A stretch of DNA of 53,607 nt from a virus. The notes beneath the pieces were generated by a model. It searched no databases. It was not told where the DNA came from and saw nothing but the letters and a program-made list of their open reading frames with translations. The stretch lies in the IMG/VR virus record IMGVR_UViG_3300022748_000006. One strand, given 5' to 3'. Position numbers and translations under genes: made by a program. Positions 3,902 to 53,607 of the stretch are shown piece by piece. Numbering within the stretch: the stretch's first letter is position 1; every line of letters starts with the position of its first letter.

Positions 3902-6420
3902 TGGAAGACCTCGACCCCAATCTGGAAATCACCGAGAACGATGACGGCAGCGCCCTTGTGGATCTGCCTGAAATCGAGACGGAAGAGCAGCCGGACGGCT
4001 CGGCCATTGTCACCATCGACGAGGGTGGCCCGGAAGAGAACCCCGACTTCTATGCCAACATGGCCGAAACGTATGACGAGTACGAACTTGGCAAGTTGGC
4101 CATGCGTTACATCGACCTGCTGAAGAAGGACAAGGACGCCCGAGAGCAGCGTGATAAGCAGTACGAGGAAGGCATCAAGCGCACGGGCATGGGCAACGAC
4201 GCCCCCGGTGGCGCTACGTTCATGGGCGCATCCAAGGTGGTTCACCCTGCTATGGCTGAAGGCTGCGTGGACTTTGCGGCCAAGGCCATCAAAGAGATGT
4301 TCCCACCAGACGGCCCTGTCCGCACCAAGGTGCTGGGCAAGATGGACGACATCAAGGCCGAGCGTGCAGAGCGCAAGCGTGACTACCTGAACTGGCAGAT
4401 CACCGAGCAAATTGAAGAGTTCCGCGATGAGCAAGAACAACTGCTGACCCAACTGCCACTGGGCGGCTCACAGTACTTCAAGATCTGGTTCGACGAACAA
4501 AAGAAACGCCCATGCGTGGAGTTCTTGCCAATCGACCGTGTGATCCTTCCCTTCGCGGCAACGAACTTCTACACAGCCCAGCGTGCTGCTGAAGTCCACG
4601 AAATCACCGAGTGGGAGTTCAAGCGCCGTGTGAGCAACGGCATGTACCGCGACATCAATCTGGTGTCGTCGACCATGGAGCCGGAGCAGACCAAAGCACA
4701 GAAAGCCAACGACAAGATCGAGGGCAAGAAGTGGGAAGACAACGAAGACGGCGTGCGCAAGGTGTACCACGTCTACGTCTATCTGGAGTTGGAGGAAGAC
4801 AAGTACAGCAAGGGCGAGATGGCCCCGTACATCCTCATGATCGACGAACTCGACAACGAAGTGGTGGGCCTGTACCGCAACTGGGAAGAGTCCGACGACA
4901 CCATGTCCAAGCTGGACTGGATCGTGGAGTTCAAGTTCATTCCATGGCGAGGTGCCTATGCGATTGGTCTTCCTCACCTTATTGGTGGTCTGTCTGCCGC
5001 TCTCACTGGTTCTTTGCGTGCATTGCTGGACTCGGCTCACATAAACAACGCCGCCACGATACTCAAGCTCAAGGGCGCGAAGATGTCTGGCCAGAGCCAG
5101 CAGGTGGACGTGACCCAGATCGTGGAGATTGAAGGCGCACCCGGCGTGCAGGACATTCGCCAGATCGCCATGCCCATGCCGTTCAATCCACCCTCACAGG
5201 TGCTGTTCCAGCTTCTGGGCTGGCTTGACACAGCAGCCAAGGGCGTAGTGTCCACCAGCGAGGAGAAGATCGCCGACGTGAACGCTCAGGCTCCAGTGGG
5301 AACCACACAGGCTTTGATTGAGCAGGGCGCTGCGGTGTTCTCGTCGATCCATGCACGCTTGCACGAGTCACAGGCCCGTGTGCTGAAGATTCTGTGCCGC
5401 CTGAACCGCTGGCACTTCGACGAGATGCGCAAGTCTGACGTGGTGGCCGACTTGGAAATCACCCGCGACGACTTCCAGAAGAACACCGACGTCATCCCGG
5501 TGTCTGACCCTCACATCTTCAGTGAGACGCAACGCATGGCCCAGATGCAGGCTGTGCTGGCGCTGGCCGACAAGCACCCCGACCAGTTCAACATGAACAA
5601 CGTGTTGGCCCGTTCGCTCAAGCAGATGAAGATCCCCAACATCAACGAACTGATGAAGGACGTCCCGGCTCCAGAGCAGCGCACATCGGCAGACGAGAAC
5701 GCTGCCATGCTCATTGGCCAGCCAGCCTATGCGTACATGCAGCAGGATCACATCGCGCACATTCAGGATCACCTGCAGTTTGGCATGAACCCATTCTTGG
5801 GCCAGTCGCCATTCGCAGACCCGAACTACCTGAACAACCTGATCGAGCACATCAAGCAGCACATGACCCTGTGGTATCTGAACCGCAGCAATGGCTACGT
5901 GGCTCAGTCTCGCGGCGGAAAACCTGTGGACAACTACGACGATCCGCTGCTGACAGGCACCATCGACCAGTTGTACACCACGGTGGGTGCTCATGTGTCT
6001 CTGGACACCAAGGAAGTGTTTGGCCAGTTTGCGCCAGCCTTCCAGCAACTCATTCAGATGGCTCAAAAGCGCCAGCAATCTCAGAAGCAGGCTTTGCCTC
6101 CCGACGCGCAAGTGGTTCACGACACCAGCATGGCCGAGACCCAGCGCAAGGCGCAGGACGACCAAGCCCGTCTGCAACTGGACAACCGCAGACTGCAGGC
6201 GGACATGGCCAAGCACTTGGACGACAACAAGACCAAGATTGCCATCGAGAACGCCAAGCTGACGCACCAGACCATCACGGACATCGCGACAGCAGAAGTA
6301 CCCCCTGCCCCTGCTACCATGGGCGCAGGTCAACCCGGTATGCCAGAAGGTATGCCACAACCTCAAGGTATGCCACAGGGCATGCCACAACCTCAAGGAG
6401 TGCCAAATGGCAACGTCTGA
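3901..6420 (+). CDS. Putative portal protein
   Basis: 839-aa ORF with a TGATG overlap on the upstream stop. Size, position near the terminase and an acidic N-terminus fit a portal. C-terminal GMPQPQ tandem repeats. The family was not verified by search. Confidence 0.6.
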   Translation: MEDLDPNLEITENDDGSALVDLPEIETEEQPDGSAIVTIDEGGPEENPDFYANMAETYDEYELGKLAMRYIDLLKKDKDAREQRDKQYEEGIKRTGMGNDAPGGATFMGASKVVHPAMAEGCVDFAAKAIKEMFPPDGPVRTKVLGKMDDIKAERAERKRDYLNWQITEQIEEFRDEQEQLLTQLPLGGSQYFKIWFDEQKKRPCVEFLPIDRVILPFAATNFYTAQRAAEVHEITEWEFKRRVSNGMYRDINLVSSTMEPEQTKAQKANDKIEGKKWEDNEDGVRKVYHVYVYLELEEDKYSKGEMAPYILMIDELDNEVVGLYRNWEESDDTMSKLDWIVEFKFIPWRGAYAIGLPHLIGGLSAALTGSLRALLDSAHINNAATILKLKGAKMSGQSQQVDVTQIVEIEGAPGVQDIRQIAMPMPFNPPSQVLFQLLGWLDTAAKGVVSTSEEKIADVNAQAPVGTTQALIEQGAAVFSSIHARLHESQARVLKILCRLNRWHFDEMRKSDVVADLEITRDDFQKNTDVIPVSDPHIFSETQRMAQMQAVLALADKHPDQFNMNNVLARSLKQMKIPNINELMKDVPAPEQRTSADENAAMLIGQPAYAYMQQDHIAHIQDHLQFGMNPFLGQSPFADPNYLNNLIEHIKQHMTLWYLNRSNGYVAQSRGGKPVDNYDDPLLTGTIDQLYTTVGAHVSLDTKEVFGQFAPAFQQLIQMAQKRQQSQKQALPPDAQVVHDTSMAETQRKAQDDQARLQLDNRRLQADMAKHLDDNKTKIAIENAKLTHQTITDIATAEVPPAPATMGAGQPGMPEGMPQPQGMPQGMPQPQGVPNGNV

Positions 6421-6804: not shown

Positions 6805-7260
6805 ATGAGTGAGAAAAATCCGATCCCGACCATTGACGGAGCCGCAGGCGTGTCCGATCCAGTTGAACTGGCGTGGGCATTCCCTGACGTGAATCCGGGT
6901 CAGGCACCCTTTGGTGGACGAGTCATCGTCCAGTTGCGCCGCATCAAGAAAAAAGCGGGTCGCATCATCATCGTCGATGAAACCAAAGAAGCCGAAAAGT
7001 GGAACAACATGATTGGCAAGGTGGTTTCGATTGGCCCATTGGCCTTCAAAAACCGCGAGACCATGCAGTCATGGCCGGAAGGTAGCTGGGCGCAAGTTGG
7101 CGACTACGTGCGCGTCCCTCGTTGGGGCGGTGACCGTTGGGAGCGCAAGGCACCAGACACCGAAGACGGGGAAGATCCCGTGCTTTTCATGACCCTGAAC
7201 GACCACGAACTGATTGCGAAGGTCACCGATGACCCGCTGTCGTTCAAAGCCTACGTCTAA
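6805..7260 (+). CDS. GroES/Cpn10-like co-chaperonin domain protein
   Basis: ATG 6805 lies 6 nt after AGGAGA. The pattern GGRVIVQLRR..AGRIIIVDETKE..GKVVSIGP..VGDYVRVPRWGG..LIAKV parallels the GroES layout (mobile-loop region plus beta core). Confidence 0.7.
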   Translation: MSEKNPIPTIDGAAGVSDPVELAWAFPDVNPGQAPFGGRVIVQLRRIKKKAGRIIIVDETKEAEKWNNMIGKVVSIGPLAFKNRETMQSWPEGSWAQVGDYVRVPRWGGDRWERKAPDTEDGEDPVLFMTLNDHELIAKVTDDPLSFKAYV

Positions 7261-7272
7261 TTGGAGGATCAC

Positions 7273-8280
7273 ATGGCTACCGAAGACAAAAACAACCAAG
7301 AATTGAGCATTGAGGAGACGCAAGACGGCTCCGCAGTGGTTGATTTGCCCGAAGGCATTGACTTGCCCTTGGACGGCGACGAAAACGCCTCAAAACCCGC
7401 TGAAAAGGCCGAAAAAGCCGACGGTGGCGAGGTCTCTGGCGACGACGAAGACCACGACGACGACTCCGATGCCGTCCGTGCGGCCAAACGAGCACGTCGT
7501 CGGGCCAAAAAAGACCTGATTCGCAAGACCAACGAGGAAAAAGACCTTCGTCTGCAGCAGTTGGCACGCGAAAACGAGGAATTCAAGCGCCGTCTGGCCA
7601 ATGTGGAGCGTGAATCGCAAAACAGCCAGATCGCACGCCTCGACAAAGGTCTGGAAGACCAAAAAGTGCGTCTGGAATACGCCAAGATGAAGATGGCCGA
7701 GGCCGTCCGCGCTGGTGATGGTGACGCCATGGTCGAAGCGCAGACCATGTTCAACGAGGCTCAGGCCGCAGTTGGTGAGTTTGCCCGTGCCAAACAGCAG
7801 GCAGAACAATCCCTGCGCCAGCCGCAGCAACAACAACGTGAAGTCCCGGTGATTGACCCATCCGTGCAGCGCAATGCCGCTGACTGGATGAAGCGCAATA
7901 GCTGGTACAAGCCGGACACTTCAGATCGTGACAGCCAGATCGCCAAGAAGGTTGACGAACTGCTGGTCACGGAAGGCTGGAACCCATCCGACCCAGATTA
8001 TTGGGACGAATTGGATTCCCGCTTGCAAAGAGCACTGCCTCATCGCTACAATGAGGCATCAGGCAGCGATTCCGCTGTCAGGAAACCGAGGAACGTAGTG
8101 GGAAGTTCAGGTCGTGAGGCTTCTGCCGCATTTGGTGGTACCAACCGCACACAGTTCGTGCTTTCACCCGAACGGGTCAAGGCCATGAAAGAAGTGGGCG
8201 CGTGGGACAACCCTGCACGCAAGAAAGCAATGATCGACAACTTCATCAAATTCGACCGCGAAAACGCTGGTCGCCGCTAA
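7273..8280 (+). CDS. Putative scaffolding protein
   Basis: ATG after GGAGGA. Highly acidic N-terminus, then long charged coiled-coil-like segments. Located between the portal and capsid genes. Confidence 0.6.
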   Translation: MATEDKNNQELSIEETQDGSAVVDLPEGIDLPLDGDENASKPAEKAEKADGGEVSGDDEDHDDDSDAVRAAKRARRRAKKDLIRKTNEEKDLRLQQLARENEEFKRRLANVERESQNSQIARLDKGLEDQKVRLEYAKMKMAEAVRAGDGDAMVEAQTMFNEAQAAVGEFARAKQQAEQSLRQPQQQQREVPVIDPSVQRNAADWMKRNSWYKPDTSDRDSQIAKKVDELLVTEGWNPSDPDYWDELDSRLQRALPHRYNEASGSDSAVRKPRNVVGSSGREASAAFGGTNRTQFVLSPERVKAMKEVGAWDNPARKKAMIDNFIKFDRENAGRR

Positions 8281-38306: not shown

Positions 38307-39119
38307 ATGACAAGAATGGTGAGACTGGATCAGATCCGCCTTGATGGCGGCACTCAGTTCCGAGACCAGATTGACCAGAACACGGTCAAGCACTACACAG
38401 ACTGCATGCGCGACGGCGCAGAGTTCCCGGCAGTCAAATGCACCTTCGATGGTGTGAACTACTGGCTCTGGGATGGATTTCACCGTTACTTTGCAAGCCA
38501 AGCTGTGGGGTTCAAAGAGATTCTGGTGGACTACAAGCCCGGCACCATGGAGGACGCGCAGGACTTGGCTCTGAGCGCCAACGGCAAGCACGGCCTGCCA
38601 CGCAACACGGCCACCAAGCGCAAGCAAGTGGAGACCGCCCTGTCGATGGAGCGCCACAAAGACAAGTCCGACCGTGAGATTGCCAAGCTGTGCGATGTGT
38701 CTCACACCTTCGTGGCCAGCGTGCGAAACCCCGAGGTCAAGGATCGCCAGAACAAAAACCGTGACGCCTCTGCGGCCAAGAAAGTGGAGTCGGACTCCAC
38801 CCTGAAGGCTGGTGATGTTGTTCCAAACCAACAAGTGGAGTCGGACTCCACCGACCCCAAGGTGTCCCTGACTCAGGACTACGGCCCAGACGCCGACGAA
38901 CTCAAGGCGATGGAACTGGCCGAGCAGGCTGACCGTGACGCCATGTACAAGATGCTGGAGTCTGACGATGCTCTGGCCACTGCGGTCAAAGAAATCGAGC
39001 GCCTGAACTTCCTGAATGCTCAAATGGAGATTCGGATCACCGCCCTGATGAACGAAAAAAATGCCGCCGTCAAGATGGTGAAAGACCTTGAGAAGCAACT
39101 GAAGAAAGCCAAAAAATGA
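38307..39119 (+). CDS. ParB/Srx-superfamily N-terminal domain protein (orphan ParB-like)
   Basis: 270 aa. VRLDQIRLDGGTQFR and WLWDGFHRYFAS are ParB-N box-like. An HTH-like segment (DREIAKLCDVSHTFV), a linker holding two palindromes and a C-terminal coiled coil. Confidence 0.75.
   Translation: MTRMVRLDQIRLDGGTQFRDQIDQNTVKHYTDCMRDGAEFPAVKCTFDGVNYWLWDGFHRYFASQAVGFKEILVDYKPGTMEDAQDLALSANGKHGLPRNTATKRKQVETALSMERHKDKSDREIAKLCDVSHTFVASVRNPEVKDRQNKNRDASAAKKVESDSTLKAGDVVPNQQVESDSTDPKVSLTQDYGPDADELKAMELAEQADRDAMYKMLESDDALATAVKEIERLNFLNAQMEIRITALMNEKNAAVKMVKDLEKQLKKAKK
38784..38800. repeat. Palindrome GTGGAGTCGGACTCCAC (17/17)
   Basis: Inside the ParB-like linker, read as KVESDST. Confidence 0.95.
38835..38851. 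repeat. Palindrome GTGGAGTCGGACTCCAC (17/17)
   Basis: Second copy 51 bp downstream, read as QVESDST. Confidence 0.95.
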
Positions 39120-40645
39120 CTGAAGTCCTAGCACAGCGAGTGTGTGATGATGGATCGACCTTCCCTCCTCCACGCCCCTTCCAACTCGATGCCCACCAAC
39201 AACTCCGTCAGGGGTTTAAGGCTGGCCACAAGAATCAAATTATTTGCGCCCCCACTGGGGCTGGGAAGACCTACCTTGGCCTGCGGATCTGCAACGAGGC
39301 CATGCAAAAGGGCAAACGTGCCGTGTTCCTGTGTGATCGCACCACGCTGATCAACCAGACCTCTGCTGCAGCCGACGGGTATGGCCTGCGTGAGCATGGC
39401 GTGATCCAAGCAAATCACTGGCGTCGCCAGCCCGAGCAGTTGCTGCAGATCGCATCCGCTCAGACAATTGCCAAGCGTGAATACTGGCCACAGCTTGACG
39501 TTCTGGTGGTCGACGAGGCGCACACCCAGATGAAGGTCTGGACTGAGTTCGCCCAGAACACTCAGGCGGCTGTGATCGGACTGTCTGCGACTCCGTTCTC
39601 GGTGGGTCTCGGAAAGATCTTCACGAACCTGATCAACGCCACCACGATGCACGACCTGACCGAGTCCGGTGTGCTGGTGCCCATGCGTATCTTCTCTTGC
39701 ACGAAGCCCGACATGACAGGCGCTGCCACCGCTGGCGGTGAGTGGACGGACAAGGCTGCAGAAGAGCGCGGCATGGACATCGTGGGGGACGTGGTCACTG
39801 AGTGGCTGAAGTTCGCCGAGAACCGCAAGACCATCGTGTTTGGCTCCACGATCAAGCACTGCGAGGAGTTGGCCCAGCAGTTCATCAACCAAGGCGTCAT
39901 GGCCGCTGTGTTCACGTCTGAGACCACCGCCAAGGAGCGTGAAGCCCTGCTGGAGGACTACCGTCGCCCCGACAGCTACATCCGTGTCCTGATCAGCGTG
40001 GAGGCTCTTGCAAAGGGTTTTGACGTACCTGACGTGGGCTGTGTGTGCGATGCACGTCCCCTTCGTAAGTCGCTGTCCACCGCCATCCAGATGTGGGGCC
40101 GTGGTTTGCGCTCGTCGCCCTCCACCGGGAAGAAGGACTGTTACCTGCTCGACTTCAGCGGCAACATCATCCGCTTCGCTGAGGACTTCACCGACGTGTT
40201 TTTCAACGGTCTGGAAAAGCTGGACGACGGCGAGAAGCTGGACAAGAAGATCCGCAAGGACGAAGAGGTCGAGGTGCGTGGGTGCCCCAAGTGCGGCTAC
40301 ACCCCGTTCCACAAGCGCTGCATGGCATGCGGCTACGAAAAGGTGAGCCAGAGTGTGTCTGAGGCGCTACCCGGCCACATGCAGGAAATCACCATCGGCG
40401 AGGGCAAGAACAAAAAGGTGCTGGCCAGCAACGCCGAGAACCTGTGGCACCAGCTTGTGGCCTACGCAAAGATCCACAGCGCCCCTGAAAAGCAGCAGGG
40501 CAGGGCTTACCACCTGTTCAAGAAAATTACTGGCCAAGACCCCATGTGGCGCTTCTCAACGGCACCCGCAGTTGAGATTTCCCGTCACACGTACAACAAG
40601 ATCACGCAACTGAACATGGCGTGGAAGAAGGGGATGCAGAAATGA
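39116..40645 (+). CDS. SF2 DEAD/DEAH-box type DNA helicase with C-terminal zinc ribbon
   Basis: 509 aa. Walker A APTGAGKT, DEAH box VVDEAH and CPKCGY..CMACGY. Confidence 0.85.
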   Translation: MTEVLAQRVCDDGSTFPPPRPFQLDAHQQLRQGFKAGHKNQIICAPTGAGKTYLGLRICNEAMQKGKRAVFLCDRTTLINQTSAAADGYGLREHGVIQANHWRRQPEQLLQIASAQTIAKREYWPQLDVLVVDEAHTQMKVWTEFAQNTQAAVIGLSATPFSVGLGKIFTNLINATTMHDLTESGVLVPMRIFSCTKPDMTGAATAGGEWTDKAAEERGMDIVGDVVTEWLKFAENRKTIVFGSTIKHCEELAQQFINQGVMAAVFTSETTAKEREALLEDYRRPDSYIRVLISVEALAKGFDVPDVGCVCDARPLRKSLSTAIQMWGRGLRSSPSTGKKDCYLLDFSGNIIRFAEDFTDVFFNGLEKLDDGEKLDKKIRKDEEVEVRGCPKCGYTPFHKRCMACGYEKVSQSVSEALPGHMQEITIGEGKNKKVLASNAENLWHQLVAYAKIHSAPEKQQGRAYHLFKKITGQDPMWRFSTAPAVEISRHTYNKITQLNMAWKKGMQK

Positions 40646-41278: not shown

Positions 41279-41528
41279 TCGAGCATGGTTTACCATTGAA
41301 GAGATCAACAAGTGGGCAGACAACTATCACCTCAATGCGATCACAAGAGCGTTGGAGTCGGTTCGCCGATCAGGTCAGCCAGCCGAGATCTCGGGAGCGT
41401 ACATCGAGAACCTTGAGTACGGGTTGGCAACCTTCGAGCAGTTAATCGATGAATTTGACCTGACCTGCAAGTGGGACAAAACCACTGGTCGCTACATCGT
41501 CGAAAAGCCGGGGAGGGCATACAAATGA
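41271..41528 (+). CDS. Hypothetical protein
   Basis: 85-aa ORF. Confidence 0.6.
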   Translation: MNNRAWFTIEEINKWADNYHLNAITRALESVRRSGQPAEISGAYIENLEYGLATFEQLIDEFDLTCKWDKTTGRYIVEKPGRAYK

Positions 41529-42397
41529 CCACTTTCATCGACTTTGCACGCTCACACGGTGTCGACATCGACCCCAGCAAGCTGTACGCCTCCGACAAGA
41601 TCCGTCGCACTGGCACCGTGGAGAAGCCACGCTCTGACAACGGCGCATTCTTTTGGGATGGCCAGCGCGGCTGGGTGTTCAATTGGTCTGGCGAGGCTCG
41701 GACAATCTGGTACGAAGATCCCAATGCCAAGCCATGGACTGAGCAGGAAAAGCAGGAATGGATGCTCAAGCGCCAGACAGCCGCTGCAGCGAAGAATCGT
41801 TCCTACGACATCGCTGCACAGAAGGCTGACATCACCTTGCGCTCGGCCAAGATGGCCACGCACGACTACCTGCACCTCAAAGGCTTTCCTGACCTTCAGG
41901 CGCTGGTGTTGGACGGCAAGCTGCTGGTGCCCATGCGCAACGTCGTGACCAACAAGCTGCAGGGCTACCAGCAGATTTTTTGGGACATGGACGAACGCAA
42001 GTGGGAGAAAAAGATGCTGCCCGGCATGCGTGCCAAGAATGCTGTGCTGTTCATGGGCGACAGAAGGGCCGAGGAGGCGTGGTTGGTCGAAGGGTATGCC
42101 ACGGGCCTGTCCGTGCAGGCAGCGCTGCGTGCAAGCGGTTCTGGTGCGTCTGTGGTGGTTTGCTTCAGTGCTTCGAACCTGATCCAAGTGGCCGACCAGA
42201 TCCCCGGGCGCAAGTTCTGCTTCGCCGACAACGACGCCAGCGAGACGGGCGAGAAGGCTGCAAAGTCTGCCGGATTGCCTTATGCTATGGCCGACACCAT
42301 GGGCTGGGATGCCAATGACCTCCACAAGGCCAAGGGACTGTTTGCGGTGACGGCGAAGATCATGCAGTGCAAGCAGAAAGCTGCTGTACACTCCTGA
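41525..42397 (+). CDS. Toprim-domain DNA primase-like protein
   Basis: ORF track 41471..42397 trimmed to the ATGA-coupled MTTFIDFARSHG. WLVEGYATGLS .. CFADNDASETGEKAA fits the Toprim E..DxD layout. Confidence 0.7.
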   Translation: MTTFIDFARSHGVDIDPSKLYASDKIRRTGTVEKPRSDNGAFFWDGQRGWVFNWSGEARTIWYEDPNAKPWTEQEKQEWMLKRQTAAAAKNRSYDIAAQKADITLRSAKMATHDYLHLKGFPDLQALVLDGKLLVPMRNVVTNKLQGYQQIFWDMDERKWEKKMLPGMRAKNAVLFMGDRRAEEAWLVEGYATGLSVQAALRASGSGASVVVCFSASNLIQVADQIPGRKFCFADNDASETGEKAAKSAGLPYAMADTMGWDANDLHKAKGLFAVTAKIMQCKQKAAVHS

Positions 42398-42749
42398 CCC
42401 TTCATGAAGGTCGTGCTGGTGGACTGAAAACACCAGCGCCAAAAAGGATGCGTCCTGCCTCTGGGGATTCCCGGGGGGCCGGACAGGGCGCATCCTTGTT
42501 GGTGAGGCTGGTAGCTAATCGGTATCCCTTAAACGCCCATCCAAGCGTGGGGTCGCCAACAACATGCAGGCCGTGTCGCGTAGCAGAGTCCAAGGGCAAA
42601 AGCTGTCTTGGTGGCTCACGGTGAAGAAAATCGCGAACCTACACGCATGGGAGCCGCTGGGCGACGGCCAGCGCGAAGGTGAGTCCAAAGGGCTGTGACA
42701 CGGCCAGCCACACCATCGCGTAAAAAAGGCGGCTCCCGCCAAAAAATTG

Positions 42750-42780
42750 TTGACACACCCAGACCAGTTGTGCTTATAAT
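42750..42780 (+). promoter_or_regulatory. Consensus sigma70-type promoter in the ORF-free region
   Basis: TTGACA (42750..42755) and TATAAT (42775..42780) are both perfect hexamers, with a 19-nt spacer by my count. An A-tract lies upstream. Confidence 0.55.
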
Positions 42781-42787
42781 GCGCCCA

Positions 42788-42914
42788 GCTAGGTGTGAGA
42801 ACCCAAGCAAGTGAAAGCCGTTAAGTCAGATCCCGACCCCGAATGGGGTAGCGCGTCAGCCCAAAAAGCTGGGGTGTTTTCTCACCGGGGTCTGTCTTAA
42901 CGGCTTTTTCTTTT
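42788..42914 (+). ncRNA. Candidate ~127-nt structured RNA with intrinsic terminator
   Basis: AAAGCCGTTAAG (42814..42825) pairs with CTTAACGGCTTT (42896..42907) and is followed by a T-run. Inside are a second 9-bp helix and three hairpins (ACCCC-GAAT-GGGGT, CAGC..GCTG, GGTG..CACC). Confidence 0.45.
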
Positions 42915-43560
42915 GTGTCTTTGAAGATGGTGAATGCGCAGGCTGATGCGTTCCGTCAGGCAGGCCGTGGCCACGGCAGCAGACCTGATCCGGTTCGAGA
43001 GTCGAGGCACCGATAAGCCGGAGATCAGCACCGGCCACCATCTTCAAGGACACACATCTCACACCCAGCCGTCAGGGCGCGTTAGCTGATGGCCGCAAGT
43101 GGGGCTGAACCCGAGAAACCGCGACACGGTATGCAACCGTGGACTTGATGATGATGCGGCGTGGAAGGACACGCTAGGTACGGTGCAGAAACATTCAATG
43201 CGGCGAGGGAGTGACCCGGCGGTCGCACTGCGAAGGTACTGATAGGAAAATGGAGTTGGCTCTGGGGACGCCCATCCAACCGCAGGCGACTGGTAGTGTG
43301 TCGCTGAACCGGAATCAAGCCCGGTCATCATCATCAAGTCCATGGGCTAGGGGGCAGTTCCCGAACAATCCGTGCGGCTGGTCGAATCATCAAGCCGGGG
43401 GCATACGGTATCCAATCCGTAGCATGATGATCCCGTTCATCGGGGGTGAAGCACCTTTCTCCTTCCTTACTCCACCGCCGTGGGGTAGGGGGGGTCTTTG
43501 GGTGAAAGGATTGAGAGGGGGGGGCAGGGCCGACCACGGGATCGACTCGACCCCAAAAAA
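42915..43560 (+). ncRNA. Candidate large structured RNA and/or replication-origin region
   Basis: No credible ORF. An 18-bp helix 42915..42932 / 43036..43053 (one G-U) and a perfect 16-bp helix 43141..43156 / 43326..43341 each enclose further hairpins. G4/G7/G8 tracts at 43482..43529. Confidence 0.3.
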
Positions 43561-43572
43561 ATTTCACCTGAA

Positions 43573-43620
43573 CTCTAATTCCATGTTAGAATTCAAGCAC
43601 CACGACGTTGTGGGTATTAC
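43573..43620 (+). promoter_or_regulatory. Conserved promoter/operator/leader module, copy P1
   Basis: CTCTAATTCCATGTTAGAATTCAAGCAC. Dyad TCTAA (43574..78)-N7-TTAGA (43586..90). Extended -10 TGTTAGAAT. Leader hairpin 43600..43613. Confidence 0.55.
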
Positions 43621-52613: not shown

Positions 52614-53607
52614 GTCTTGCCCTCGAAATCCTCGAAGACGAGAAAACTCAGCAGGAGTACAGCGCACTGTCGCCGTACCAGCAGGCGGCATTTAACTGGC
52701 AGTTCAAGTGGCTCAATGAGCAAGCCCTGAAGCACCAGATCGAGCCTGCAGGGGACTGGTGGAACATCTGGCTCATGCTGGCTGGCCGTGGAGCCGGAAA
52801 GACCCGGGCGGCTGCTGAGACGCTGGCTTCATGGGCATGGGAGACGCCAAACACTCGCTGGCTGGTGTCGGCTCCAACGTCCGGCGACTTGAAGAGCACT
52901 TGCTTTGAGGGCGAATCCGGCCTGCTGAAGGTGATCCCCACCATTTTGGTGGCCAAGTACAACTCCAGCCTGCACGAGATCACGCTGGTGAACGGCAGCC
53001 TGATCAAGGGAATCCCGGCGTCCGAGCCTGAGCGCTTTCGGGGGCCGCAGTTCCATGGGGGCTGGCTGGACGAGTTGGCCGCATGGGAGTACCTGCGCGA
53101 GGCGTGGGACATGATCATGTTCGGCATCCGTCTTGGCACCCGCACCAAGCTGATCGCGTCCACCACGCCAAAGCCCAAGGAGGTGGTGATGGAGTTGATC
53201 GACCGTGAGGGCGACGACGTGGTGATCACCCGCGCCAGCACGTACAGCAACATCAAGAACCTTGCGCCATCCTTCCAGAAGCAGATCCTGCAGTACGAGG
53301 GCACCAACCTCGGGCGGCAGGAGATTCACGCCGAGATCATCGACCCCGAAGAGGGTGGCATCGTCAAGCGTGACTGGTTCCGCCTCTGGCCAAACCATAA
53401 GCCCTTCCCTCGCTTCGAGTACATCATTCAGTCCTACGACTGCGGCTATAAGGACGGCGCAGCCAACGACCCGACGGGCTGCATCACTCTGGGTGCATTC
53501 AAGCCAGAGGACGGCGGCATGTGCGTCATGGTCATCGACTGCTGGCAGGAGAAGCTGCAGTACCCCGACCTGCGCCCCAAAATCATCGACGAGTACGAGA
53601 CTGTGTA
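52610..53607 (+). CDS. terL: Terminase large subunit, N-terminal (ATPase) part; open to the window end and continues at 128..569
   Basis: ATG 52610 overlaps the terS stop. Walker A GRGAGKT lies at 52784..52804. No stop before the window end. Absent from the track only because it lacks an in-window stop. Confidence 0.9.
   Translation, partial: MSLALEILEDEKTQQEYSALSPYQQAAFNWQFKWLNEQALKHQIEPAGDWWNIWLMLAGRGAGKTRAAAETLASWAWETPNTRWLVSAPTSGDLKSTCFEGESGLLKVIPTILVAKYNSSLHEITLVNGSLIKGIPASEPERFRGPQFHGGWLDELAAWEYLREAWDMIMFGIRLGTRTKLIASTTPKPKEVVMELIDREGDDVVITRASTYSNIKNLAPSFQKQILQYEGTNLGRQEIHAEIIDPEEGGIVKRDWFRLWPNHKPFPRFEYIIQSYDCGYKDGAANDPTGCITLGAFKPEDGGMCVMVIDCWQEKLQYPDLRPKIIDEYETV
53481..53607. repeat. 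Terminal direct repeat, copy 2 (identical to 1..127)
   Basis: See copy 1. Confidence 0.95.

Follow-up and report, generated by a model that had tools for sequence, protein, structure and literature searches.

A family of large structured RNAs with optional helix-closed domains in a complete tailed-phage genome and other viral contigs

Background

Few large natural RNAs have elaborate conserved folds, and those described (RNase P, the group I and group II introns, OLE, GOLLD, ROOL and raiA) are each biochemically unusual. The RNAs of phage early operons that act in cis, such as HK022 put and lambda nut (antitermination) and the leader-embedded immunity RNAs P4 CI and P1 c4, measure 30-80 nucleotides (nt); the P4 immunity RNA uses a pair of directly repeated target sequences. 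The ColE1 RNA II pre-primer, which belongs to a replication region, is a long structured transcript made from a constitutive promoter that precedes the replication start, with three-segment alternative pairings and a G-rich segment. The GOLLD and ROOL RNAs of phages and prophages are found near tRNA islands; in GOLLD the 3' region is conserved, the 5' region varies and the linker contains tRNAs (PMC12286853). The subject of this report is an RNA encoded on the + strand at about 42788-43510 of a 53,607-nt stretch of viral DNA (IMG/VR record IMGVR_UViG_3300022748_000006; "the window" below means this whole stretch), in which a first-pass annotation made from the letters alone had flagged two long helices as the closures of domains in a large structured RNA. 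That a real structured RNA family underlies this region is virtually certain, and the two helices very likely close peripheral domains with which the family can dispense. Taken as a whole, the picture of optional domains on one large structured + strand RNA with a cis role at an early operon is, on balance, probable.

The nearest analogues in kind are GOLLD (RF01998) and ROOL (RF03087), and membership in either family is excluded. The RNA resembles GOLLD in being large, phage-borne and mostly metagenomic, with pseudoknots and with tRNA or tRNA-like units embedded or adjacent; ROOL, often located close to tRNAs and not known to have a protein partner, is likewise an ornate RNA of phages and prophages with multiple pseudoknots. 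In contrast to GOLLD, to which it has no detectable homology, the RNA described here is smaller (core of ~270 nt), carries a U-run hairpin module upstream and lies at the head of an early or replication operon, not in tRNA islands; its genomic position also differs from that of ROOL. Its conserved words are absent from the published alignments of both families. Searches against Rfam 15 at the gathering threshold returned no match in the whole window or in 10 other members, and relaxing the threshold to E ≤ 10 for the window region and one canonical member gave chance-level matches only. The RNA thus matches no catalogued family, and its placement as a new family of a known kind, the large ornate phage RNAs, is well supported.

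Results and discussion

The two long helices and the domains they close

Helix 1 (19 nt, 95% complementary, one G-T pair) and helix 2 (20 nt, 95% complementary) were both found in the sequence and by a repeat finder. Helix 2 comprises the perfect 16 base pairs (bp) originally noticed and four further pairs, one of them G-T. The domains that they close, and the hairpins of the first, are as follows.

42914-43054, + strand: accessory domain 1, closing helix 42914-42932 / 43036-43054 (helix 1)
42936-42951, + strand: hairpin Ma of domain 1, UGCGCA-GGCUGA-UGCGU, loop GGCUGA
43018-43034, + strand: hairpin Mb of domain 1, CCGG-AGAUCAGCA-CCGG, beside the closing helix
43137-43345, + strand: accessory domain 2, closing helix 43137-43156 / 43326-43345 (helix 2), which prolongs the P4 stem of the core

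The partner of helix 1 is found above chance (two reverse-complement matches against 0.07 expected; none of 100 shuffles reached two). Helix 2 is less exceptional at ≤3 mismatches (two matches against 0.55 expected; 12 of 100 shuffles), so that its main support comes from the homologues. The closest relative of the window, an IMG/VR contig (L002) found through its 80% identical primase, is 98% identical over the 179 nt 3' of helix 2 and lacks both helix-closed domains; GAC-UUCG-GUC stands there in place of domain 2 (209 nt). Among 147 members, P4 is a short tetraloop hairpin in 120, capped in the short forms by GCAA, GUAA, GAAA or UUCG, and carries a long insert in 25, in which a 20-bp helix (consensus CCGUGUGAUUGAUGAUGGUG / CACCAUCAUCAAUCACAUGG) encloses 70-190 nt. 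Domain 1 occupies a different site, the linker between the U-run and the core, where about 20 other members have other helix-closed domains; its interior is canonical, with motifs common to the domains that other members carry at P4. Helices 1 and 2 close two copies of one kind of optional domain.

The loss of the helices in homologues had been named as one observation that would count against a structured RNA. They are instead kept there by compensatory change: over 14 distinct domains, both window copies included (alignment A3), the closing helix is paired in 98.9% of cells, against 24-59% in slid controls, and 10 of its 20 pairs have changed on both sides. The loops of Ma and Mb are complementary (GCUGAU, 42942-42947, with AUCAGC, 43024-43029), and this loop-loop pair covaries in the family as GCUGAU/AUCAGC, ACUGAU/AUCAGU, GCCGAU/AUCGGU (L055 against its near-twin L088) and GUUGA/UCAAC (L243). 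A long "acceptor" helix enclosing a 5' hairpin and a 3' hairpin with pairing loops amounts to a tRNA-like layout. The resemblance to tRNAs and viral tRNA-like structures extends to a variable centre and, in the domains of L022, L024, L118 and L125, to D-arm-like GUAGCUCA and T-arm-like GGUUCGAWUCC words. These domains are nonetheless not tRNAs: ARAGORN called no tRNA or tmRNA in the window and none inside the domains of 24 loci, and the "acceptor" helix has 20 bp, not 7 as in the tRNA cloverleaf. Domain 2 of the window, moreover, lacks the loop complementarity, and its diverged interior is peculiar to this genome. Neither domain interior has a match among ~245 loci, and the hairpin word of domain 2 occurs in no viral contig. 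The helix-2 word gave 40 matches in a metagenome scan, of which only L243 is a family member, with the same helix-2 sequence as the window around a canonical interior; the others appear to be chance GATGATGATG stretches.

Presence and absence between close relatives, the two related copies in one locus and the tRNA-like layout would also be expected if the domains were mobile insertions, either tRNA-derived or resembling miniature inverted-repeat transposable elements (MITEs), with the helices as terminal inverted repeats. This explanation is very improbable. The arm sequences of both helices have no further copy in the 53.6-kb genome, the domain motif is confined to this RNA in every locus that carries it, and no target-site duplication is visible flanking domain 1 or domain 2; these three observations mark the domains as expansion segments rather than transposons. 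In addition, only two structurally permissive sites are used, the insert prolonging an existing stem, and compensatory changes, with G-U pairs on a single strand, keep the arms paired. As to MITEs in particular, neither the window nor the other loci contain dispersed copies outside this RNA, and no flanking duplication accompanies the domains. The family thus offers two defined expansion sites that accept tRNA-like domains.

Other elements of the first-pass annotation fared unevenly. Its small hairpins are all in the sequence, but two of them are not the conserved pairings: the ACGGT-ATGCA-ACCGT hairpin competes with the conserved helix P3, and the CTGATCCGG/CCGGAGATCAG pairing competes with the conserved CCGG-loop-CCGG hairpin and its loop-loop contact. 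The idea of a large structured RNA closed by long helices likewise held in that the helices do close domains, except that these domains are accessory and lie outside the conserved core and that the RNA far exceeds the flagged interval. Partial direct repeats, offered as possible iterons, occur at 43314-43324 and 43389-43399, 1-2 nt from where they had been placed. The iteron interpretation is not supported: ATCAAGCCGGG is where the strands of P6 and P5 join, and ATCAAGCCCGG forms a hairpin within domain 2; the ATCAAGCC[C]GGG words show no repetition in relatives.

The conserved core

In the family a probable early sigma-70-type promoter is followed by a branched hairpin (~100-125 nt) with a U-run at its end, then by a linker of 11-17 nt and a core of ~270 nt. 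The core consists of P1-P3, a three-way junction with a conserved 25-nt strand, the P5/P6 pseudoknot, the hairpins P7, P8 and P10, and the P9 helix. Short forms measure ~330 nt including the 5' module, the family ranges from 330 to 750 nt, and the RNA of the window is ~0.7 kb. The positions of the core elements in the window are given below.

43125-43129 (CACGG) / 43370-43374 (CCGUG), + strand: helix P3, covarying
43347-43371, + strand: junction strand CUAGGGGGCAGUUCCCGAACAAUCC, between P4 and P3, holding the hairpin GGG-GCAGUU-CCC
43375-43379 / 43393-43397, + strand: helix P5, 100% paired, three pairs changed on both sides
43386-43392 / 43425-43431, + strand: helix P6, 98% paired, five pairs changed on both sides
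43401-43423, + strand: hairpin P7, inside P6
43432-43444, + strand: hairpin P8, 3' part of the core
43445-43455, + strand: hairpin P10, 3' part of the core
43465-43475 / 43480-43490, + strand: helix P9, pyrimidine tract paired with the G-tract

Covariation was assessed on alignment A2, made with MAFFT alone from 64 distinct short forms, in which seven helices were named. Standard pairs make up 97.1% of its cells, a share that falls to 36-48% if the 3' partners are displaced by 1-3 columns, and 17 pairs and 280 cells have changed on both sides, values reached in none of 500 shuffles; these counts are raw, without correction for phylogeny. The strongest signals in A2 come from P3, P5 and P6. P3 occurs as ACACGG/CCGUGC, GCCGG/CCGGU, CGUGG/CCACG and ACUGG/CCAGU, with covarying pairs CG/GU/AU, AU/CG/GC/UA and CG/UA. 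P5 reads CGGCU/AGCCG. P6 had already been noticed as the ATCATCA/TGATGAT hairpin of the first-pass annotation; it is the best-covarying helix of the family, with variants AUCGUCA, AUCUGCA and AUAUGCA beside AUCAUCA/UGAUGAU. Because the 5' strand of P6 lies within the loop of P5, the two helices form a pseudoknot. Because the variable hairpins were misaligned in the MAFFT alignment, RNAalifold recovered the structure only in part, a difficulty solved by a covariance model. This model is small (P6, P7, P8 and P10 only) and gave one full-length match in each of 95 distinct loci. On the alignment fitted to it (A5), 95.7% of cells are paired and 19 of 22 pairs have changed on both sides; this alignment, too, supports P6 and P7. 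P7 is a single hairpin in 65 of 69 distinct sequences although these sequences differ widely.

Other parts of the core vary little. The junction strand CUAGGGGGCAGUUCCCGAACAAUCC is invariant in A2, 18 of its 25 nt being fixed by the search pattern itself and its flanks not; members found with a different pattern differ from it by no more than point variants, and in divergent members the stem GGG/CCC becomes CGG/CCG. In P9 the pyrimidine tract faces the near-invariant GGGGUAGGGGGG, and its changes are mostly C/U exchanges opposite G. The G-tract GGGGUAGGGGGGUCUUUGGG in the 3' core is near-invariant as well.

G-U pairs are frequent and point to the + strand, and the RNA folds more favourably relative to shuffled sequences on that strand (z = -7.3) than on the - strand (z = -4.8). 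Every reading frame is interrupted within the core (median ≤71 codons, minimum 5), and the gaps do not keep to multiples of three. Together with the covariation and the tetraloops, the G-U pairs, the lack of an open frame and the indel lengths indicate an RNA read from the + strand. The alternatives of intergenic DNA of the usual kind, whose inverted repeats would be due to chance or would form DNA cruciforms or iterons, and of a coding gene in the open reading frame (ORF) 43211-43630 (139 aa), are accordingly given next to no credence: ORFs of 70-140 aa do overlap the RNA in many loci, and helix 2 alone is not rare by the statistics above, but the covariation is far above its controls and the words quoted as iterons are parts of helices. 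The coding version is refuted by the closed frames and the indels, and the overlapping ORFs have no Pfam match.

The 5' module and the atypical 5' quarter of the core in the window

Upstream of the core the window contains the following elements.

42750-42755 (TTGACA) and 42775-42780 (TATAAT), + strand: putative sigma-70-like promoter, 19-nt spacer, A-tract upstream (42736-42748)
42788-42914, + strand: 5' module, branched hairpin with arms 42809-42835 / 42886-42912 and U-run 42905-42914
43055-43136, + strand: 5' quarter of the core, atypical, keeping GGCCGCAAGUGGGGCUG and ending with the P3 5' strand CACGG (43125-43129)

The putative promoter aligns with TTGACA...TACAAT of L002, and 52 of the 147 members have a strict TTGAC[AT]-N16-19-TAnnnT at the corresponding place; a promoter scan missed the copy in the window because its spacer exceeds 18. 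Judged from this arrangement, the RNA probably starts near 42788. The 5' leader GGUGUGAGAA is able to pair with UUUUCUCACC inside the module hairpin. The 5' module was found in 80 loci (67 distinct), where its stem is 99% paired with GC/AU exchanges, and the module of the window shares up to 90% identity with the modules found elsewhere in the family. Its long covarying stem and run of T's look terminator-like; a terminator scan called only a short inner hairpin at 42856-42872. A T-run stands 11-17 nt 5' of the core in 122 of 147 members, and this fixed spacing suggests a structural link between the two. The hairpin and U-run module also forms a conserved structured unit by itself. In MW202545 (L001) it stands at 4001-4137, immediately before ORFs and with no large core, and bears the annotation of a coding sequence for a "hypothetical protein", probably a mis-annotation.

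The 3' three-quarters of the core are canonical in the window. The 3' core was matched by nhmmer over 43338-43507 (E = 6e-41) and by the covariance model over 43369-43456 (115 bits, the window being one of the seed sequences), and it has the junction strand CUAGGGGGCAGUUCCCGAAYAAUCC, P5/P6, P7, P8, P10 and the G-tract. The 5' quarter differs: the near-invariant ACUCC and GGAAG motifs are missing, which makes the window one of three exceptions among ~150 members, with CCGUCAGGG and CCGAGAAACC in place of the conserved CCGUACUCC and GGAAGnAAAG, and nhmmer found a match there at 43115-43134 only. The 5' leader (42788-42800) and the sequence just after domain 1 (43057-43069) are complementary over 13 nt (92%), and their pairing could close the 5' module and domain 1 into one unit in this genome.

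Distribution of the family

The 25-nt stretch beside helix 2 served as the entry point to the family. An 18-mer from it matched 113 viral contigs exactly, a G-rich 19-mer at least 120, and a slightly degenerate anchor gave 187 loci (155 distinct), each with exactly one copy; the 187 contigs are a lower bound. In 50,697 GenBank phage records the RNA core had no match, even at E ≤ 1, and the sole match of any part was that of the 5' module in MW202545, a metagenomic siphovirus. A 21-mer of the family had no match in 185,579 bacterial and archaeal genomes. The G-tract had a single one in the same set, on a 1.8-kb contig (L205, CAIKVH010000005.1) of a metagenome-assembled genome of an uncultured member of the Burkholderiales. 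This contig carries a complete short-form RNA 3' of an initiator-like gene and is a weak clue to a host in that order. The conserved words of the RNA were not found in the literature searched, where topic searches gave general catalogues only. The 8,495 unnamed candidate RNAs that Fremin et al. (2023) drew from IMG/VR (PMC10690425) may include pieces of this family as an anonymous listing.

With hundreds of members and an unusually clear covariation signal that includes a pseudoknot, the family is tractable, and its short forms (~330 nt) are small enough for chemical probing and cryo-EM. Five contigs (L116, L120, L149, L180 and L184) have the G-tract word GGGGUAGGGGGGUCUUUGG after a pyrimidine tract without the rest of the core, and four of them share another upstream architecture containing GGGGCAGUUCC. 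They may belong to a distantly related sister family; alternatively, the G-tract may function as a unit independently of the core.

A co-varying direct repeat

GGGUGAA (GGGTGAA in the DNA) occurs at 43444-43450 and again at 43500-43506. A direct repeat of 6-10 nt is found throughout the family, always in exactly two copies ~50 nt apart that flank P9, and it changes in step between phages (GGGUGAA, GGAGGAA, GGACGAUCC, GAUGGCAUA, GGUGCAAC). Copy 1 is the 5' half of P10, and where P10 changes from GGUG/CACC to GGUA/UACC, copy 2 changes with it. UACUCC is also present twice, against a single GGGGUA. The repeat and the duplicated UACUCC suggest alternative pairing states; the repeat may represent such a pairing or two sites for a phage-specific factor. 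No complement of the repeat was found, and no further copies of it within ±1.2 kb. These duplicated elements make the hypothesis of a switch testable.

Two repeats that change together, loops included, are what would be expected of sites for a co-evolving protein, and this is one ground for considering the locus as part of a replication origin. Like ColE1 RNA II, the RNA would then serve as a structured pre-primer or would activate the origin, with its G-rich 3' end persistently hybridised to the C-rich template and the repeats as sites for a phage-specific initiator; in a DNA-only version the structure would be a single-strand initiation signal for primase. The RNA does lie constantly within the replication/recombination module, its G-tract is near-invariant and reminiscent of the mitochondrial CSBII G-run, and most members lack a terminator, so that transcription would run on. 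The likeness to ColE1 RNA II lies in a structured transcript in a replication region without its own terminator, with possible alternative pairings and a G-rich segment; in contrast to RNA II there is no sequence relation, no antisense unit like RNA I was found, and the position relative to the replication genes varies, the primase being upstream in the window and downstream in most members. Further points speak against an origin: the two repeats form no iteron array, only 27 of 145 members have an AT-rich stretch after the RNA, and no GC-skew extremum occurs at the site, GC skew being uninformative as an origin marker. GNRA and UUCG loops and abundant G-U pairs speak against the DNA-only version in particular. 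An origin function is, in our estimation, improbable.

Genomic neighbourhood and possible function

The window represents a complete tailed-phage genome of ~53.48 kb that encodes portal, tail and other virion proteins; positions 1-127 recur at 53480-53607 (a 127-nt assembly overlap), which indicates a circularly assembled, complete genome. Within it, 42400-43630 forms 1.2 kb without a credible gene, 3' of the helicase and Toprim primase genes. This "empty" intergenic DNA of these phages is an RNA gene, sometimes annotated as hypothetical proteins, as in MW202545. The landmarks around it are listed below.

39116-40645: helicase gene, upstream of the RNA
41471-42397: Toprim primase gene, upstream of the RNA
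43563-43592, + strand: second promoter-like site, TTCACC-N18-TAGAAT, with an A-tract (A7-T3) from 43550, before the first ORF (ATG at 43633)

Across the family a Sak-like single-strand annealing protein (57 of 115 loci) and an exonuclease (40) are encoded upstream, mostly in divergent orientation; RusA lies upstream on the same strand in 36 loci. Downstream, on the same strand, are an initiator-like protein of 127 aa (27 loci), a protein of 80 aa (35) and a T7 gp4-like primase/helicase (31), and the longest downstream ORF is co-directional with the RNA in 98 of 125 loci. A ribosome-binding site with a start codon follows within 110 nt of the RNA in 74 of 145 members, and a canonical terminator 3' of it in only 7 of 145. 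This address beside phage replication and recombination genes gives a concrete place in which to seek the function.

A cis-acting role is suggested by the place of the RNA at the start of an early replication operon; as a claim of its own, this role is advanced tentatively. Host RNA polymerase would make the RNA early, as the first part of a rightward transcript that would run into or beside replication genes (initiator-like protein, primase/helicase); in the window the helicase and primase lie just upstream of the RNA instead. The conserved core, not the flagged domains, would be the working part and would link early transcription to the replication module, either to its expression or to its start-up. 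One way of doing so would be to control read-through at the U-run hairpin and at weak hairpins farther downstream, by means of alternative pairings of the duplicated GGUGAA and UACUCC elements. Such an RNA would resemble put/nut and the P4 CI and P1 c4 RNAs in being transcribed first in the early operon, on the same strand as the genes, and in acting on its own transcript or polymerase. It would differ from them in size (330-750 nt against 30-80 nt) and in having the terminator-like hairpin upstream of the core rather than downstream; no complement of the direct repeat was found, and the Rfam C4 family was not matched. A related thought, somewhat unlikely, is that the RNA belongs to a new class of large pseudoknotted phage RNAs tied to the start of the replication module, with swappable tRNA-like side domains. 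Its core would bind or act on a universal machine (RNA polymerase, ribosome or replisome) or would itself be catalytic, and its two-state 3' end, with the duplicated GGUGAA and UACUCC elements, would make it a switch timing phage DNA replication.

Several points weigh against the cis-acting interpretation, or against parts of it. The strong terminator-like hairpin (long stem and U6) lies upstream of the core, so that transcription of the core needs read-through; in every model the U-run hairpin must either be read through or belong to the fold. A second promoter-like site between the RNA and the ORFs, in the window and in L002, weakens a cis role here, and the downstream genes do not belong to one conserved family. 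The loop positions of the direct repeat co-vary as well, so that a pure alternative-pairing model is insufficient. The copy in the window, being without two near-invariant 5' motifs, may be a variant or partly decayed. Both ends of the RNA (near 42788 and ~43510) are inferred from the sequence, the covariation counts are the raw ones noted above, and A5 is fitted to its own model. Finally, size, conserved strand and adjacency to tRNAs (7 of 187 loci) fit a free-standing RNA equally well.

Such a free-standing RNA would be a trans-acting "ornate" RNA of the GOLLD and ROOL kind, cut out of or terminated from the early transcript, whose conserved loops would act on a conserved cellular or phage partner or serve self-assembly, with the tRNA-like domains as cargo or processing handles. 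The large, pseudoknotted, phage-only structure with its conserved 3' and variable 5' region would suit it, as would the embedded tRNA-like domains, the 25-nt strand that is invariant in the alignment, the second promoter-like site 3' of the RNA in the window and the varying downstream genes. On the other hand, the RNA always stands at the operon head after a promoter, never among structural genes or in tRNA islands; more than 90% of members are without a terminator of their own, and in half an ORF starts within 110 nt. The tRNA adjacency is also rare (4%). We regard a trans-acting RNA as somewhat unlikely and retain the cis-acting early-operon RNA as the preferred interpretation. A search of the rest of the genome for sequences antisense to the conserved strands found none.

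The loci in which tRNA genes directly adjoin the RNA on the same strand are L065 (2343-2864, an array of six), L121 (8315-8469), L026, L082, L095, L136 and L160; they are reminiscent of the neighbourhoods of GOLLD and ROOL.

Other features of the locus

The A-tract at 43550 before the second promoter-like site resembles that of the first promoter (42736-42748), and the site, as judged from its sequence, may free the downstream genes from read-through in this genome. A terminator-like hairpin on the - strand (43599-43565) overlaps it. Directly after the primase stop, 42439-42502 holds a 19-nt inverted repeat (89%) whose 5' arm is kept in L002 (91%) and MW202545 (97%); it is probably the terminator of the primase gene or a regulatory hairpin. 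In L002 an additional ORF of 306 aa without a Pfam match (7222-8142) stands between the primase and the RNA promoter and is absent from the window. Downstream of the RNA, a low-GC island at 44200-44950 (0.39-0.46 against ~0.57 for the genome) spans an ORF of 183 aa (44316-44867) without a Pfam match, which may be a recent gene acquisition.

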